Of a stretch of 64,000 nt of DNA, positions 5,870 through 12,220 are shown piece by piece. The position numbers and the translations under genes are program-made. Where the stretch lies: NCBI RefSeq assembly GCF_044324785.1, contig NZ_CP172127.1; one strand, written 5' to 3'. Within the stretch, counting starts at the first letter, position 1. Each line of letters opens with the position of its first letter. This DNA is from Escherichia coli (GTDB lineage: Bacteria; Pseudomonadota; Gammaproteobacteria; Enterobacterales; Enterobacteriaceae). The notes under the pieces are model-generated. The model was not told the origin of the DNA and searched no databases. It was given only the letters and a program-made list of their open reading frames with translations.

Positions 5870-6981
5870 TGTGCAGCTCCTGGTTTGGCCTCACCAATCA
5901 CCACTTCATCGCCCGCTTCCAGCCCTTTGACAATCTCAACATCGGTATCGTTACGTGCGCCAATCGTCACTTCACGCTCGCGTGTTTCACCATTACGCAA
6001 CAATTTGACTTTATAACGATTATCGCCAACCGGATCGCCTAACGCCGACAGAGGGATCGTCAGCACATTTTTCACATCGGTGAGCTGAATATGCACTTGC
6101 GCAGTCATATCCAGCCGCAGCAAACCATTGGGGTTGGGGACTTCAAAACGGGCGTAATAGAAAATAGCGTCGTTAACCTTTTCCGGCGTCGGTAGTACAT
6201 CCTTGATTTGCCCCTCGTAGCGCGTCAGTGGATCGCCAAGTACCGTAAACCAGGCTTTTTGCCCCGGCTTCAGGTGGATTACATCCGCTTCAGAAACCTG
6301 CGCTTTTACCAGCATGGTGCTCATATCTGCCAGCGTCAGAATGTTCGGTGCTTGTTGTGCGGCAATCACCGTCTGGCCTTGCAGAGTGGTGATTTGCGTG
6401 ACTTCCCCGGCCATCGGAGCAACGATGCGGGTGTAATCGAGATTGGTTTTAGCCGTATCGAGAGAGGCCTGATTGCGCTTGATTTGCGCGTCAATGGTGC
6501 CAATTTGCGCCTGTTTCACAGCCATCTCCGTCGCGGCGGTATCGAGATCTTGCTGTGAAACCGCTTGCGTTTGTGCAAGACGTTGCTGACGGGAATACGT
6601 CACCCGCGCCAGTTTCAGCTCCGCTTCCGCCTGCTGCCGCTGCGCGCGTAGCTCCATCAGCGTTGCTTCGACCTCCTTGATCTGGTTTTCAGCCTGTTCA
6701 GGATCAATAACCCCTAAAAGCTGGTCTTTTTTAACTTTATCGCCAATCGCTACCGACAGCGTTTTCAACTGACCGCTGACCTGCGCGCCCACGTCAACCT
6801 TACGCAGCGCGTCCAGCTTTCCGGTCGCCAGCACGCTTTGCTGTAAATCACCGGGGCGCACAATCAGCGTCTGATAAGTCGGAACGGGTGCGTTAAGAAT
6901 TCTCCATAATGTAATCAGTCCGGCGATGACTATCACCAGCGCAATAACGTAACGCTTCTTCACGGTTTGCCGCTTTTTCAT
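5866..6981 (-). CDS. macA: Macrolide efflux membrane-fusion protein MacA (371 aa)
   Basis: Signal-anchor then coiled-coil/HlyD-like sequence; start at [14 protein letters not shown]. Confidence 0.94.
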
Positions 6982-7095
6982 AAATATTCTGAATACTCCA
7001 TATGCCAATCCGGGTCATTAACTTCAACGAAATATCAACAAAACCCTAAAATTTACGTTAGTAATCACACTATTGATGTTTGGTTAAGATACGCA

Positions 7096-8088
7096 ATGGT
7101 GAAATCGACGTCATGTATAACCATTGATTTCATGAATATGTCGCAGCTAACTGAACGGACCTTTACGCCATCTGAATCTCTCAGCAGCCTGTCACTTTTT
7201 CTTAGTCTGGCACGTGGACAGTGTCGGCCGGGTAAATTCTGGCATCGCCGTAGTTTTCGCCAGAAATTTTTGCTGCGCTCGTTGATTATGCCGCGTTTAA
7301 GCGTTGAGTGGATGAACGAACTTTCCCACTGGCCTAATCTCAATGTGTTGTTAACGCGCCAGCCGCGACTGCCTGTGCGTCTGCATCGCCCTTACCTTGC
7401 GGCGAATCTTAGCCGTAAGCAATTGCTGGAGGCGTTACGTTACCATTATGCGTTACTCCGCGGGTGTATGTCGGCGGAAGAATTCAGCTTATATTTGAAT
7501 ACCCCCGGGCTGCAACTGGCGAAGCTGGAAGGCAAAAACGGCGAGCAGTTCACACTTGAGCTGACCATGATGATCTCAATGGATAAAGAAGGTGACAGCA
7601 CAATCCTGTTCCGCAACAGCGAAGGTATTCCTCTGGCAGAGATCACGTTTACCCTGTGTGAATATCAGGGGAAAAGAACAATGTTTATTGGCGGACTGCA
7701 AGGCGCAAAATGGGAAATTCCACATCAGGAAATCCAGAATGCGACGAAAGCCTGCCACGGGCTATTTCCCAAACGCCTCGTGATGGAAGCGGCCTGTCTG
7801 TTTGCCCAACGTTTGCAGGTAGAGCAGATTATTGCCGTCAGCAATGAAACGCATATTTACCGCAGCCTGCGTTATCGTGATAAAGAAGGCAAGATCCATG
7901 CTGATTACAACGCTTTCTGGGAGTCGGTTGGCGGCGTATGTGATGCTGAACGCCATTACCGCCTTCCAGCACAGATAGCACGAAAAGAGATTGCCGAAAT
8001 CGCCAGTAAAAAACGGGCTGAATACCGTCGGCGCTATGAGATGCTCGACGCTATTCAGCCACAAATGGCCACGATGTTTCGCGGTTAA
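7096..8088 (+). CDS. ybjX: VirK-like protein YbjX (DUF535; 330 aa)
   Basis: Start MVKSTSCITIDF gives the 330-aa K-12 length; stop overlaps the convergent ybjD stop by 4 bp. Confidence 0.88.
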   Translation: MVKSTSCITIDFMNMSQLTERTFTPSESLSSLSLFLSLARGQCRPGKFWHRRSFRQKFLLRSLIMPRLSVEWMNELSHWPNLNVLLTRQPRLPVRLHRPYLAANLSRKQLLEALRYHYALLRGCMSAEEFSLYLNTPGLQLAKLEGKNGEQFTLELTMMISMDKEGDSTILFRNSEGIPLAEITFTLCEYQGKRTMFIGGLQGAKWEIPHQEIQNATKACHGLFPKRLVMEAACLFAQRLQVEQIIAVSNETHIYRSLRYRDKEGKIHADYNAFWESVGGVCDAERHYRLPAQIARKEIAEIASKKRAEYRRRYEMLDAIQPQMATMFRG

Positions 8089-9743
8089 TCCGCGCGACCG
8101 CGCGCCAGCCACAGCACGCGTGAGAACATTTTTTTCAGCAGCGTCGGTACGGAGTCCACACCACGACGTCCGGCCTCCATTGCCACTTCAATGGCAAGAT
8201 CGGGTTTGGAAGAGCGATGGATCGCTTTCGAGATAATTTTGCGCAGATTCATCGGTACATTTTCCGGGATTTGCGCCACGCGGTGGAACACATCGGAAAA
8301 TCCCTGGCGATACATAAAATGTTCCATATCCAGCGCCGGTAACGCCGTTAAATGTTCTCGTTCGGCTTCCCGATCGTTATTCAACAGGCTGCGTACCGTA
8401 GCGGCATATTTCTTCCCTGCTTCATCGCCATCGACCAGTACATGCCATTCAATCCCCATTCGCCGGGCAAATTTAACCAGTGGCTTTAGCCCGGACTGGG
8501 CAAACTCAATGACCTTGATCCCTTCGGCATCAAAATGATGTCCGCACTGACGCGCCAGTTCATTGATAACCCAGGTTTCCGTTTCCCCTTCCACCAGCAG
8601 CCAACAACGGGCAAACAGCGATGACGGACGGTTAAAACGAATGTGAAAGGATATGCGTCGGCTATCTTCGGTACTCAAGCCACTCGGTCCCAGACGCCAG
8701 GCGGCAACGCGAGAGGACTCACGTACCAGTCGGCAAACATGCTCTACCGGCGTTAACGAAAGCAACTCTCCCGAGTTGGTAGTAGCGATGCGCTGCAAGG
8801 GCAGAAGATTCAACAGATGCCAGGCAACTGAAAGCATAATGGGGTGTAAACGGGTTTCTGGATCTTCAATCAGCAATAATGGACGGGCGTCTTTATCCAG
8901 CCGCAATGTGCCTTTTGCCTGCAACAAAGTAGCAAACAGGCCGAGCAAAATAACCCGATACGAGCGCCCACCAGGTCGGTCAATCATCCGGTTGATGATA
9001 TCCAGATAGCGCCAGCTTCGTTGCTCATTGCTGGCTCGCCGCCGCATTAAACGATATCGCGCCTGTCCGGCCCCCTGCTCAGAGAAATAATGCTCAAGCA
9101 GCTGTACCATTGCGGAAAGTCCCTGACGAATCTGTCCATCAGAGAGATTTTGCGGATGTGAGGACAACTCACGGGCGAGGAAATCGAGCTGGCGCGCGGT
9201 GACTTCCACATTAGGGACATTTGGCACCGTGCCGTTACGAATACGGCGCATAAAACGGGCATCACGCAAGCGCAGCACCGGCATTAAACGCACCAGATGG
9301 CGTGCCTGATCGTTAATATCCTCGACATCAATCGGATGTCCGTCTTTATCGAGAAAACTGCGCAGTGTCATCACGCTGCCGTCTTCCGCACTCTCCCCTT
9401 CCAGACGATAAAAAATACGGTGATAGCCATCGGTGCATGGCGTCCAGCACGCTTCCAGTGGCCGATAGCGGCGTACCCGATGTCGGCCTGGCAGCGATTC
9501 GCGGAAGGTCAAAATAATATGCAGATGATGTTCTCGCCCGTTGATATCTCCCGGCGGGAACCAGAAATCGTCGCGCTCAAAATGGTAGAGATCTGATTCT
9601 GGCGATAGCAGCAGGGTTAAGGCGTCCAGCAAGCTGGATTTACCCCACGCGTTCTCCCCAATCAGGACGTTGTTTTGTTCCAGCATCAACGACAAACGGT
9701 TGATACCGCGAAAACCCACAATTTCAACGCGCTCAAGAATCAT
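8085..9743 (-). CDS. ybjD: OLD-family ATPase/TOPRIM protein YbjD (552 aa)
   Basis: N-terminal Walker A GENAWGKSS; 552 aa as in K-12. OLD/TOPRIM assignment is from remembered annotation. Confidence 0.88.
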   Translation of the reverse strand: MILERVEIVGFRGINRLSLMLEQNNVLIGENAWGKSSLLDALTLLLSPESDLYHFERDDFWFPPGDINGREHHLHIILTFRESLPGRHRVRRYRPLEACWTPCTDGYHRIFYRLEGESAEDGSVMTLRSFLDKDGHPIDVEDINDQARHLVRLMPVLRLRDARFMRRIRNGTVPNVPNVEVTARQLDFLARELSSHPQNLSDGQIRQGLSAMVQLLEHYFSEQGAGQARYRLMRRRASNEQRSWRYLDIINRMIDRPGGRSYRVILLGLFATLLQAKGTLRLDKDARPLLLIEDPETRLHPIMLSVAWHLLNLLPLQRIATTNSGELLSLTPVEHVCRLVRESSRVAAWRLGPSGLSTEDSRRISFHIRFNRPSSLFARCWLLVEGETETWVINELARQCGHHFDAEGIKVIEFAQSGLKPLVKFARRMGIEWHVLVDGDEAGKKYAATVRSLLNNDREAEREHLTALPALDMEHFMYRQGFSDVFHRVAQIPENVPMNLRKIISKAIHRSSKPDLAIEVAMEAGRRGVDSVPTLLKKMFSRVLWLARGRAD

Positions 9744-10168
9744 ATCCCCTCCAGAAATATGTGACTTATCCTTTACGCTGGCAGTATAACGGGAAAGGCC
9801 TTACTAATACGTGATGACATCACATTTAAGCATGGCAAATGTCTGAAAAATGAGCGAATAATCGCGTTATACTCCCTCTTGCTGATAAGCCTGCAAAAAC
9901 AACAAAATCAAATAATTAGCATGATAAATTATTTTTTATTACGCCTAAAGGATTAAATCTTTCGCTTGCACTACACTGTCAATCAGACAAATGACTATAT
10001 GGGGCAACCCGCTGTTGCCCTAAATCAAATTTACTGGATTTATTTATCTGGCGAATGATTTGCCTTCGTTTTTAAAATAGCCGCGCATTATTTCCGTCGT
10101 CACTTTTTTACGACGACCCTATAAAACGACCATATTTTTCACAGGGTCAATTTTTAATTGAGGTGGAT

Positions 10169-10864
10169 ATGTTCAGAAAATTAGCAGCTGAATGTTTTGG
10201 TACTTTCTGGCTTGTTTTTGGTGGCTGTGGTAGTGCCGTACTGGCCGCAGGCTTCCCGGAATTAGGCATTGGTTTTGCCGGCGTGGCGTTGGCGTTCGGT
10301 CTGACCGTTCTGACGATGGCCTTTGCTGTTGGTCATATTTCTGGTGGTCATTTTAACCCGGCGGTCACTATTGGTTTATGGGCTGGCGGACGTTTCCCGG
10401 CAAAAGAAGTCGTTGGCTACGTAATTGCCCAGGTTGTCGGCGGTATTGTTGCGGCGGCGCTGCTGTATTTAATTGCCAGTGGTAAAACGGGTTTTGACGC
10501 GGCAGCCAGCGGTTTTGCTTCTAACGGTTATGGCGAGCATTCGCCAGGCGGTTATTCCATGCTTTCCGCGCTGGTAGTTGAACTGGTATTGAGTGCAGGT
10601 TTCCTGCTGGTGATCCACGGCGCAACCGACAAATTCGCTCCTGCTGGTTTTGCGCCGATCGCTATTGGTCTGGCCTTAACCCTGATTCACTTAATCAGTA
10701 TTCCGGTGACTAACACTTCTGTTAACCCGGCGCGCAGCACCGCGGTTGCTATCTTCCAGGGCGGCTGGGCATTAGAACAACTGTGGTTCTTCTGGGTGGT
10801 GCCAATTGTCGGCGGTATTATCGGTGGTCTGATTTACCGGACCCTGCTGGAAAAGCGTAATTAA
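10169..10864 (+). CDS. aqpZ: Aquaporin Z (231 aa)
   Basis: Both NPA motifs present (HFNPAVT and SVNPARS); start [13 protein letters not shown]. Confidence 0.96.
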
Positions 10865-10899
10865 TTAGCATTGGCATTTTATCTGCCCTGGTTGTTTTA

Positions 10900-11160
10900 T
10901 CTTCGACGTTACAAACCGCACGGGTGTTGGTGGCGTCAAAATCGCTGAAGCGTTCCCCGAAGGCCGGGGCAGCCCACATGGATGTGGGCTGAGGGCGCGT
11001 CTTACAGGACGTTACCTCGCGCCCGACCCGGTAGCCGAAGGGGATAAGCTGAAGGCACCGCGCAGCGGCGATTTTGTTCGCCAGAGCCCGGGGGTGCAGG
11101 GGGCGGCGGCGACTGGCCGCCCCCTGCGCGCTCCCTGCGCCAGTGGCTTTATATGGCATT
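10900..11160. repeat. GC-rich cluster of stem-loops in the aqpZ–lysO intergenic region (REP-like or structured RNA candidate)
   Basis: Perfect hairpins cagcccaca/tgtgggctg (10970-10991) and gcagggggcgg/ccgccccctgc (11096-11127) in ~260 bp of high-GC non-coding DNA. Confidence 0.4.
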
Positions 11161-11320
11161 GCACATGAAAGGAGCGCAACAATGCTAAACACTCATATAG
11201 AATTAAAAATCCCCCTCTGATGCATAACATTTCCTTTTAATTGCAACTTTACTCGTCCTTCCGCTTTCAGTAGTGTGTCATCGCGCATTTCGACTTCATC
11301 TTTGCAAGGACTGGGTTTTC

Positions 11321-12220
11321 ATGTTTTCTGGGCTGTTAATCATTCTGGTTCCCCTGATTGTGGGTTACCTCATTCCGCTTCGCCAAAAAGCTGCATTAAA
11401 AGTTATTAATCAGCTATTAAGCTGGATGGTTTACCTTATTCTCTTTTTTATGGGTATCAGTCTGGCGTTTCTCGATAACCTCGCCAGTAACCTGTTGGCG
11501 ATTCTGCATTATTCTGCCGTCAGTATTACCGTTATTTTACTGTGTAATATTGCCGCCCTTATGTGGCTGGAGCGAGGCCTGCCATGGCGCAACTACCACC
11601 AGCAAGAAAAACTCCCGTCGCGTATTGCGATGGCGCTGGAGTCGCTAAAACTGTGCGGCGTAGTAGTGATTGGTTTTGCCATTGGCCTGAGTGGACTGGC
11701 TTTCTTACAACATGCGACCGAAGCCAGTGAATACACCTTAATTCTGCTACTTTTCCTCGTCGGTATTCAGTTGCGCAATAATGGCATGACCTTAAAGCAG
11801 ATTGTCCTTAATCGCCGGGGAATGATTGTCGCCGTGGTGGTGGTTGCCAGTTCATTAATTGGTGGTTTAATTAACGCCTTTATTCTTGATCTTCCCATCA
11901 ATACCGCGCTGGCAATGGCCTCCGGTTTCGGCTGGTATTCTCTTTCCGGTATTTTATTGACCGAATCTTTTGGTCCGGTAATCGGGAGCGCGGCGTTTTT
12001 TAATGATCTGGCCCGTGAGCTGATTGCAATTATGTTGATCCCTGGGCTGATTCGCCGCAGCCGCTCTACCGCACTGGGCTTATGCGGTGCGACGTCGATG
12101 GATTTCACCCTGCCCGTTCTTCAACGTACTGGCGGGCTGGATATGGTCCCGGCGGCAATTGTTCACGGTTTTATTCTTAGCCTGTTAGTGCCGATCCTCA
12201 TCGCCTTTTTCTCTGCATAA
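11321..12220 (+). CDS. lysO: Lysine exporter LysO/YbjE (299 aa)
   Basis: Polytopic membrane protein starting MFSGLLIILVPLIVGYL; 299-aa form. Confidence 0.9.
   Translation: MFSGLLIILVPLIVGYLIPLRQKAALKVINQLLSWMVYLILFFMGISLAFLDNLASNLLAILHYSAVSITVILLCNIAALMWLERGLPWRNYHQQEKLPSRIAMALESLKLCGVVVIGFAIGLSGLAFLQHATEASEYTLILLLFLVGIQLRNNGMTLKQIVLNRRGMIVAVVVVASSLIGGLINAFILDLPINTALAMASGFGWYSLSGILLTESFGPVIGSAAFFNDLARELIAIMLIPGLIRRSRSTALGLCGATSMDFTLPVLQRTGGLDMVPAAIVHGFILSLLVPILIAFFSA

Follow-up and report, generated by a model that had tools for sequence, protein, structure and literature searches.

The core gene ybjD (oldB) of Escherichia coli encodes a solitary OLD-family ATPase-Toprim protein with a GajA-type nuclease module

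The 64,000-nucleotide stretch of Escherichia coli DNA analysed here (the window; assembly GCF_044324785.1, contig NZ_CP172127.1) carries the gene ybjD, for which the name oldB has been proposed, on the minus strand at positions 8085..9743. The gene encodes a solitary ATPase-Toprim protein of the OLD family. Its open reading frame (ORF) starts with ATG and comprises 552 codons and a stop, the RefSeq product name is 'ybjD: ATP-dependent endonuclease', and a database cluster of 5302 sequences has a representative with 100% identity to the protein. ybjD is convergent on ybjX, a gene of the VirK/YbjX family (Pfam DUF535, E=3e-102) at 7132..8088 on the plus strand, and the two reading frames share their stop codons in the tetranucleotide TTAA at 8085..8088 (assigned to neither strand), where TAA at 8086-8088 terminates ybjX and the complement of 8085-8087 terminates ybjD. 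An earlier note made from the sequence had described this convergent arrangement and its 4-bp stop-stop overlap, and the RefSeq annotation of a K-12-like strain is in agreement on both. The start of ybjX is also taken from RefSeq, where the equivalent of window position 7132 gives a protein of 318 residues; the program-made list has a longer ORF at 6967-8088 on the plus strand, with 373 residues from a TTG codon and overlapping the start region of macA, an artefact that arises when the earliest possible start codon is chosen. Around ybjD lie ybjX, aqpZ (MIP family), lysO, hcp and macAB, and the RefSeq gene order in a K-12-like strain is macB, macA, ybjX (plus strand), ybjD (minus strand), aqpZ, lysO and hcp.

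The identity of ybjD and its classification as an OLD gene are already known, and the gene was tested experimentally in 2026. YbjD of E. coli (b0876) served as the query of the OLD survey of Schiltz et al. 2019, where E. coli was assigned to Class 1, the single-gene members (PMC6755086). In a paper of May 2026 (MicroPubl Biol), Atahualpa et al. treated YbjD as a Class 1 OLD protein, proposed the name oldB and detected the ybjD transcript by reverse transcription quantitative PCR (RT-qPCR) (PMC13261556). In the same study the Keio ybjD knockout was unchanged in its susceptibility to 68 BASEL phages, and arabinose-induced YbjD, at an inducer level that was not toxic, reduced plaquing of Bas18 and Bas20 and gave smaller plaques of Bas64-68 (PMC13261556). 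Deletion of the Toprim domain (construct 1-377) left this anti-phage effect unchanged whereas deletion of the ATPase abolished it, the K35A variant kept the phage phenotype with higher toxicity, and YbjD, in contrast to P2 Old, did not kill the recBC(ts) strain SK129 when expressed (PMC13261556). The literature searched contained no biochemical work on YbjD. To this record the present analysis adds the vertical inheritance of the gene throughout its order together with selection data, the invariance of the Toprim site across the family, a Class 2-like C-terminal fold, and the finding that ybjX is dispensable as a neighbour.

Pfam assigns residues 1-375 of YbjD to DUF2813 (E=2e-160) and residues 376-440 to OLD-like_TOPRIM (E=4e-16), with weaker matches of AAA_15, AAA_21 and SMC_N in the P-loop region (residues 1-50). 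An AlphaFold2 model built on 57 diverse relatives, with a predicted local distance difference test score (pLDDT) of 88 and a predicted TM-score (pTM) of 0.87, has its best matches in the PDB to GajA (E=4e-20, query TM-score (TMq) 0.56-0.59), Thermus scotoductus OLD (Ts OLD, E=2e-18) and the OLD protein of retron-Eco8 (E=3e-14), followed by PtuA and SMC heads. The family profile of YbjD matches the sequences of Ts OLD at E=7e-21 and GajA at E=9e-20. As these three independent routes agree, the OLD architecture is confirmed, including the C-terminal Toprim domain that the earlier note had proposed.

The domains can be placed along the gene as follows, all coordinates being on the minus strand. 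The N-terminal lobe of the ABC-type ATPase (residues 1-165, 9249..9743), delimited by Pfam and the AlphaFold2 model, includes the Walker A motif or P-loop GENAWGKSS, which is read at residues 29-37 (9633..9659) as had been noticed earlier. A helical insertion in the ATPase follows at residues 166-280 (8904..9248). In the model, four helices (residues 180-195, 202-220, 242-255 and 259-277) sit between ATPase strands as they do in Ts OLD, and the loops at 172-176 and 224-241 are of low confidence. The insertion is the predicted counterpart in YbjD of the dimerisation insert described for Ts OLD (PMC7049728) and probably mediates dimerisation. The C-terminal lobe of the ATPase (residues 281-355, 8679..8903), placed by profile alignment to Ts OLD and GajA, carries the Walker B, D-loop and H-loop. 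Walker B and D-loop are contained in LLLIEDPETRLHP (residues 289-301, 8841..8879), where the stretch LLLIEDPE holds E293, aligned to E276 of Ts OLD, and the H-loop TTNSG (residues 321-325, 8769..8783) aligns to 'THS' of GajA and Ts OLD. Equivalents of the Q-loop and the ABC signature were left unassigned, the alignment being too uncertain at residues 150-165 and 255-275.

The linker and Toprim domain occupy residues 356-470 (8334..8678), as given by the OLD-like_TOPRIM match and by a separate model of the C-terminal region with a pLDDT of 95. Here the Toprim glutamates VEGETE (residues 384-389, 8577..8594) align to 'VEGYGD' of Ts OLD, and the DxD motif D438-G-D440 (8424..8432) aligns to the metal-A ligands D431 and D433. 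The C-terminal helical region (residues 471-552, 8088..8333), recognised in the model and by PADLOC, contributes the putative metal-B ligands D472-M-E474 (8322..8330), selected on conservation and hhalign comparison, and a putative catalytic lysine, K513 (8205..8207), which stands out by its conservation.

Profile alignment to Ts OLD, for which the roles of residues and mutational data have been reported (Schiltz et al. 2020, PMC7049728), pairs K35 of YbjD with K34 in Walker A, E293 with E276 in Walker B, H300 with H283 in the D-loop and N323 with H310, the catalytic histidine of the H-loop there. In the Toprim domain, E385, D438 and D440 are paired with the metal-A residues E377, D431 and D433, and E389 with the metal-B residue D381. 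By motif, D472-x-E474 would correspond to S478-x-E480 of Ts OLD and D541-x-E543 of P2 Old, and it faces 'DFE' of helicase-paired GajA in the hhalign alignment. K513 would similarly correspond to K562 of Bp OLD and K550 of P2 Old. On the strength of these alignments the Toprim domain of YbjD carries what reads as a complete two-metal active site. The asparagine replacing histidine in the H-loop and the degenerate ABC signature had already been noted for Class 1 OLD proteins (PMC7049728).

Conservation is distributed unevenly along the protein. Across 57 family representatives (28-54% identity to YbjD), columns without any variation are concentrated in the C-terminal half (E385, G386, E387, E389, W391, D440, G443, D472, E474, K513 and P514), and D438 is kept in 56/57. 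The ATPase residues vary more in the same alignment: K35 is lysine in 50/57 and arginine in 6/57, E293 is found in 51/57, E296 in 53/57 and H300 in 56/57, and position 323 is asparagine in 35, histidine in 10, glutamine in 7 and tyrosine in 4. Within Enterobacterales all of these positions are settled. K35 is lysine in 79/79 orthologs, E293, E296 and H300 are present in 100% of the 79, N323 is fixed, all 14 key residues are fixed, and none of the 79 full-length orthologs has an internal stop. By region, the linker and Toprim domain have a mean pairwise identity of 53% with 14 invariant columns, followed by the C-terminal lobe of the ATPase (39%, no invariant column), the C-terminal helices (37%, 5 invariant columns), the N-terminal lobe of the ATPase (28%, 1 invariant column) and the helical insert (18%, no invariant column), which is the least conserved region. 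The nuclease site is therefore the most strongly selected part of YbjD.

The classes of OLD proteins are defined by gene context. By this measure YbjD belongs to Class 1, as its neighbours and the Rfam search reveal no adjacent helicase, no retron reverse transcriptase or non-coding RNA and no separate Toprim gene. No helicase adjoins ybjD in any of the 80 Enterobacterales loci that represent one species each, and the absence of a partner such as a GajB-like helicase, noticed earlier for this locus alone, extends to all of them. Nor does a helicase adjoin the more distant family members in any of the 10 contexts examined, so that GajB beside distant relatives was dropped as a candidate; the genes next to these are unrelated ones for metabolism, transport or housekeeping. 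Downstream of ybjD lies the convergent ybjX, or macA where ybjX is absent. Pairing with a helicase was seen only for plasmid relatives that are at most 28% identical to YbjD and lie beside integrase or toxin-antitoxin genes.

The nuclease module itself is of the Class 2 (GajA) type by sequence and fold. When the C-terminal region (residues 356-552) was modelled alone, its best matches were the C-terminal regions of the Class 2 OLD proteins of B. pseudomallei (Bp) and X. campestris (Xcc), with TMq 0.67-0.70 and a root-mean-square deviation of ~4 Å over ~200 columns, so that the entire target is covered, its helical domain included. The match to GajA chains reaches TMq 0.46-0.57, and Class 1 Ts OLD is found at rank 15 with TMq 0.37. 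YbjD thus departs from the Class 1 exemplar Ts OLD, in which the Toprim domain lacks a C-terminal helical domain, a trait that is not part of the formal class definition, and it shares with Class 2 or Gabija proteins the GajA-type sequence, the fold and the C-terminal helical domain. The PADLOC comparison is in line with this, as the best model is GajA PDLC00094 (E=7e-80, residues 260-549) and the Old model is weaker (E=2e-24, residues 252-473); the GajA models reach residues 539-549 of YbjD whereas the P2-type Old model ends at 473. In hhalign comparisons the YbjD family profile aligns over 481 columns (E=4e-35) with the OLD protein of an Enterobacter IncFII plasmid, which has an overlapping UvrD-type helicase gene downstream, and over 464 columns (E=2e-24) with a Streptomyces plasmid OLD protein that also has a helicase, as compared to 230 columns (E=5e-13) with P2 Old. 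Where the earlier note had described the architecture as that of both P2 Old and GajA, the OLD type stands, and the profile comparison and the C-terminal fold place YbjD closer to GajA than to P2 Old. On the Streptomyces plasmid (locus L096, 1207-3053), genes for an AAA family ATPase and then a DUF4276 protein, as well as a Fic toxin gene, are present upstream of the Gabija pair, forming a small cluster like a defence island, in contrast to the ybjD locus.

The gene belongs to the core genome, as had been proposed. The 3.3-kb segment macA-ybjX-ybjD-aqpZ is present in 5424/5426 complete E. coli genomes at an identity of at least 95%. Outside the species, a scan of one genome per GTDB species gave at least 501 relatives, of which the best 80, all from Enterobacterales, were used for the locus counts throughout. 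YbjD is ~90% identical in Citrobacter and Salmonella, and its identity is 97% in E. albertii, 91% in Citrobacter, 85% in Klebsiella, 80% in Buttiauxella, 68% in Pectobacterium, 66% in Serratia and 64% in Hafnia, dropping with taxonomic distance from 99% to 64% among the best 80 loci. The conserved neighbourhood pointed out earlier also holds at this depth, since the backbone hcp-lysO-(aqpZ)-ybjD-(ybjX)-macA-macB is kept in the 80 loci, and ybjD occupies one chromosomal position throughout Enterobacterales. The ratio of non-synonymous to synonymous substitution rates (dN/dS, Nei-Gojobori) is 0.015 against E. albertii and ~0.03 against Citrobacter, only these closest comparisons being reliable because dS is saturated beyond Citrobacter, and in these comparisons none of aqpZ, macA, macB, lysO and hcp has a lower value.

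Clustering at 50% identity divides the wider family (E<=1e-30) into 335 clusters. It has members in Yersinia, Dickeya, Erwinia, Aeromonas, Vibrio, Motilimonas and Succinivibrionaceae, and relatives are also found in Vibrionales and Aeromonadales. Succinivibrionaceae represent a second lineage in which a solitary YbjD-like gene resides in its own conserved housekeeping synteny. Their proteins fall into two different clusters of 612 and 669 residues, the gene order (loci L089, L090 and L092-L094) is polA, metallophosphatase, ppiB, cysS, a variable gene and the ybjD-like gene, and the latter is convergent with yicC at a distance of 0-8 bp (for example in Candidatus Avisuccinivibrio). The variable gene sometimes encodes an AAA-ATPase_like/PDDEXK_9 protein, and one of these loci has the S10 ribosomal operon within a few kb. 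Some relatives are giant DUF2813-Toprim proteins with insertions inside the ATPase, namely P0149 (1867 residues, locus L091, 2068-7671) and P0162, P0165, P0175 and P0196 (1188-1488 residues). P0162 (~1187 residues), from Anaerobiospirillum, is the sole cluster of giant proteins that has source names. P0149 has ~1000 extra residues in the C-terminal helical region, between the equivalents of YbjD residues ~493 and ~502, and no significant Pfam match was found in them. In a further distant relative (JGI metagenome 3300037249, locus L083, 2-4062), a YbjD-like gene (34% identity) comes directly after genes for a MacB homolog (50% identity to the E. coli protein) and an outer-membrane factor (OEP), all on one strand and with an overlap of 4 bp. 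A conserved link between ybjD and macAB was not retained as a candidate, this being a single distant case that does not recur in the members from Vibrio, Salinivibrio and Succinivibrionaceae.

Mobility of the gene was likewise rejected, with no real phage copy and no true plasmid copy found. A tblastn search of 50,697 phage records gave no real copy of YbjD; the only match was an unannotated 2-kb fragment covering 18% of the protein. This record, OR845570.1 (hit H13, 2,060 bp, 'Escherichia phage ECO95 1-6-1'), matches ybjD over its first 98 codons (91% identity) and is probably host chromosomal DNA rather than phage. The close matches in the plasmid database are taken as chromosomal DNA, because the records are either as large as a chromosome or small but with ybjX alongside. 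After these, identity drops sharply, from ~40% on secondary chromosomes of Vibrio, Salinivibrio and Photobacterium to at most 32% for partial matches. The PLSDB records with the chromosomal ybjD-ybjX segment (CP088669.1, CP061270.1, NZ_OL790696.1, NZ_CP141089.1, NZ_CP134387.1 and others; hits H14-H25) are 0.7-5 Mb in some cases and 42-88 kb in others and look like misassigned chromosomal contigs, so counts of 'plasmid-borne' ybjD would be inflated. In NZ_CP118407.1 (E. coli GABEEC10, H12) the match breaks at about window position 9840, between ybjD and aqpZ, and lies in two places of the record, which suggests an insertion or rearrangement just upstream of ybjD. The usual signature of defence systems, namely a patchy distribution, association with mobile elements or defence islands and rapid turnover, is not found for ybjD, and we conclude that it is an old, vertically inherited core gene and not a mobile defence system.

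Further features of the locus were inspected for a partner or a regulatory element. PADLOC defence models had no match in ybjX, aqpZ and lysO, the three neighbours scanned. An Rfam search of window positions 6500-11500 at permissive thresholds found no family, and a structured RNA or retron-like element near ybjD was dropped as a candidate. The GC content around the gene is ordinary (0.48-0.53). Three ORFs of 99-118 residues run antisense inside ybjD and are intact in 5/80, 50/80 and 29/70 orthologous loci; as they are not consistently preserved, they were treated as chance ORFs and not as a hidden partner. Upstream of ybjD, the Shine-Dalgarno sequence GGAGG (9748..9752, minus strand) is conserved across genera, and a candidate promoter is marked by a sigma-70-type -10 hexamer TATACT within CGYTATACTGC (9783..9788, minus strand), ~39 nt upstream of the ATG, whose function is suggested by its conservation. 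In an alignment of the upstream 200 nt from 19 genera, these two were the only blocks kept in at least 80%. A simple promoter scan called nothing upstream of ybjD, the hexamer having been missed because its -35 element is weak. No LexA-type box was visible by eye in the same alignment, and SOS or other recognisable regulation of ybjD was set aside with only the -10 hexamer and the Shine-Dalgarno sequence conserved.

The shared stop codons leave no intergenic space for a terminator between ybjD and ybjX, so the 3' ends of the two transcripts necessarily overlap, in agreement with the listing of ybjD-ybjX among the convergent excludons called by ExcludonFinder from E. coli RNA-seq (PMC12288877). 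Regulatory coupling through the overlapping 3' ends would be possible. An overlap of the form YTAR (TTAA, TTAG, CTAA or CTAG) is found in 46/56 species loci that have ybjX, from Escherichia to Serratia, and YbjX is 44-57% identical in most genera that keep it. In Buttiauxella, Cedecea, Siccibacter and Hafnia the two genes are 3-46 bp apart instead. ybjX is missing from 24/80 loci that keep ybjD, including those of Klebsiella, Raoultella, Superficieibacter, Pectobacterium and Brenneria, and it evolves faster, with YbjX 44-75% identical where YbjD is 80-91% and a dN against Citrobacter youngae of 0.335 vs 0.056, a difference of about six-fold. An obligate partnership was ruled out on both of these grounds. 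In loci without ybjX (L015, L018, L023, L028, L062 and others) macA follows ybjD on the same strand after ~90-190 bp, and ybjD and macAB could be co-transcribed in Klebsiella, Raoultella and relatives that lack ybjX. In Kluyvera genomosp. 1 (locus L040, 11657-12797) ~1.1 kb separate ybjD from the ybjX ortholog, and inspection by eye finds in this gap a minus-strand ORF whose stop begins at this same GATTAA junction and which may be a second VirK/YbjX paralog inserted beside ybjD.

Whether YbjD is a defence nuclease or has a housekeeping role, as the earlier note had asked, is a real question, which the published knockout without change and the Toprim-independent effect of overexpression have partly addressed (PMC13261556). 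The reading that we favour, by a small degree, is that YbjD is an ATP-gated nuclease whose selected role lies in host nucleic-acid maintenance or stress and not in classical mobile defence. In such a mechanism YbjD would oligomerise, presumably as a dimer, through the helical insert as Ts OLD does, and ATP bound at the Walker A/B site would keep it in a restrained state. This restraint is suggested because K35A is more toxic and because the nuclease of GajA, a precedent for ATP gating, is inhibited by ATP binding. Upon loss of the restraint, the ATPase domain would engage a nucleic-acid or protein target and the Toprim site would then nick or cleave nucleic acid by two-metal catalysis, with the invariant lysine supplied by the C-terminal helical bundle. 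A weak or conditional immunity may be a side activity of this host role. Vertical inheritance, strong purifying selection and a nuclease site that is the best conserved part of the protein together imply that the selected function most likely needs the nuclease. The Toprim domain is the most constrained part, yet it is dispensable in the overexpression assay, and the anti-phage effect of overexpression therefore probably does not report the native function. We propose, more tentatively and with the balance tilting against it, that YbjD is a domesticated offshoot of the GajA lineage, which may have lost its helicase early in the radiation of Enterobacterales, Vibrionales and Aeromonadales and been retained since for a housekeeping function, as an ATP-gated Toprim nuclease with host DNA or RNA as its substrate.

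Several points weigh against a host role for an ATP-gated nuclease. That YbjD acts as ATPase and nuclease is deduced from conserved residues and homologs, and the H-loop histidine is asparagine in YbjD while the Walker A lysine is arginine or serine in 7/57 relatives, so the ATPase may be a poor hydrolase, in which case the ATP gating would rest on one mutant and the analogy with GajA. The only recorded phenotypes, an anti-phage effect and toxicity on overexpression, fit a defence reading (PMC13261556), ybjD is non-essential and no housekeeping phenotype is known. Purifying selection, which the saturation of dS mentioned above limits to the closest comparisons, and vertical inheritance may also be compatible with defence against a persistent threat. 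Alternatively, YbjD could be regarded as a single-gene anti-phage nuclease of the Class 1, abortive-infection type that became fixed in the core genome, infection lifting the ATP restraint so that YbjD kills or arrests the cell or the phage, and the native expression level or the phage panel having been unsuited so far to reveal it. Membership of the OLD family with strong PADLOC matches to GajA and Old, the overexpression effects on Bas18, Bas20 and Bas64-68 together with the greater toxicity of K35A (PMC13261556), and the defence roles of the other characterised bacterial OLD proteins (P2 Old, Vc OLD, GajA and retron Eco8) all speak for it. However, the knockout is unchanged with 68 BASEL phages, the effect survives removal of the very domain that is most constrained, and the single vertically inherited locus throughout the order, with dN/dS of 0.015-0.03, neither defence-island nor mobile context and neither phage nor true plasmid copies, does not resemble known defence systems, whose pattern is patchy with fast turnover. 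We consider this explanation unlikely, albeit one that keeps appreciable weight.

The remaining explanations seem far less probable. The module likeness could mean that YbjD is an orphan GajA which has lost GajB and works in trans with a housekeeping helicase of superfamily 1 (UvrD, Rep, HelD or RecB). The C-terminal match to Bp and Xcc OLD (TMq 0.67-0.70 vs 0.37 for Ts OLD), the PADLOC GajA model (7e-80) aligned to the extreme C-terminus and the hhalign match to a plasmid GajA paired with a helicase (E=4e-35 over 481 columns vs 5e-13 over 230 for P2 Old) agree with such an origin, but likeness of the module does not amount to a requirement for a helicase, since the Class 2 protein Bp OLD shows nuclease activity in vitro by itself. 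With no adjacent helicase in the 80 Enterobacterales loci and 10 distant contexts, we give this explanation little credence. Nor do we place much belief in ybjD and ybjX as a functional pair, whether the overlap of transcripts lets one gene silence the other or the proteins act jointly. The YTAR overlap in 46/56 loci, the missing room for a terminator, the excludon listed from RNA-seq (PMC12288877) and a tie of ybjX to PhoP in the literature are compatible with a pair; against this, ybjD is intact without ybjX in 24/80 loci, ybjX evolves far faster (dN 0.335 vs 0.056 against Citrobacter youngae) and distant family members have unrelated neighbours. The tetranucleotide is moreover self-preserving, because any change in it lengthens one or both proteins, and its conservation therefore needs no function. 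ybjD might also be thought of as what is left of an ancient defence gene, decaying or without function, in view of the knockout without phage phenotype and the change from histidine to asparagine in the H-loop. This is effectively refuted by the selection data and has almost no probability left: dN/dS is 0.015-0.05, the reading frame is intact in 79/79 species orthologs, the catalytic residues are all fixed, the gene is present in 5424/5426 E. coli genomes and its transcript is detected by RT-qPCR.

The interest of ybjD lies in a contradiction, as OLD proteins are seen as effectors of phage defence while this one is encoded by a gene that belongs to the core of an entire order, is inherited strictly vertically and is under strong constraint, and the sole phenotype reported does not depend on the nuclease site, which is conserved better than any other part. 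Resolving it would reveal either the way in which a defence protein comes to be fixed in the core, or a host-maintenance role of bacterial OLD proteins like the one recently found for an archaeal member, and E. coli K-12 is the easiest organism for testing the role of YbjD. What continues to deserve attention is a nuclease of a defence family that evolves as a core gene, and a Class 2-like module without a helicase.

Compared with known systems, YbjD has the same domain order as the Class 2 OLD and GajA proteins (B. cereus GajA, 8sm3 and 8x5i; Bp and Xcc OLD, 6nk8 and 6njw), sharing with them an ABC ATPase with helical insert, a Toprim domain and, at the C-terminus, a helical domain with a catalytic lysine, and ATP binding appears inhibitory in both YbjD and GajA. 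In contrast, GajA has the UvrD-like helicase GajB adjoining whereas YbjD and the relatives examined do not, YbjD is chromosomal, core and vertical whereas the real Gabija pairs found sit on plasmids, and the H-loop residue is asparagine in YbjD and histidine in GajA. With the Class 1 OLD proteins (Ts OLD, 6p74; phage P2 Old; Vibrio cholerae Vc OLD) YbjD has in common the solitary gene, the order of ATPase, insert and Toprim and the conserved metal-A and metal-B residues; of the known Class 1 traits of an asparagine for histidine in the H-loop and a degenerate ABC signature, YbjD has the H-loop asparagine. It differs from P2 Old, which is phage-borne, kills recBC-deficient cells and cleaves tRNA, in sparing recBC(ts) cells, and from Vc OLD, whose ATPase residues are needed for defence, in that K35A retains the phenotype. 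A different comparison is offered by the archaeal Class 5 OLD protein Cran1 of Sulfolobales, which is conserved throughout its order and plays a part in progression through the cell cycle, the ATPase and not the nuclease being critical for the phenotype although the nuclease residues are conserved (PMC12796447). Both are order-wide conserved OLD proteins apparently without antiviral use, and in both the ATPase carries the observed phenotype; Cran1 is essential, cell-cycle regulated and in a putative operon with a membrane-protein gene, whereas ybjD is non-essential and has no known link to the cell cycle. The likeness between them is one of analogy, with homology at the level of the family. 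If YbjD is indeed a domesticated offshoot of the GajA lineage, it would be the bacterial counterpart of Cran1, and bacterial OLD proteins would not be exclusively immune.

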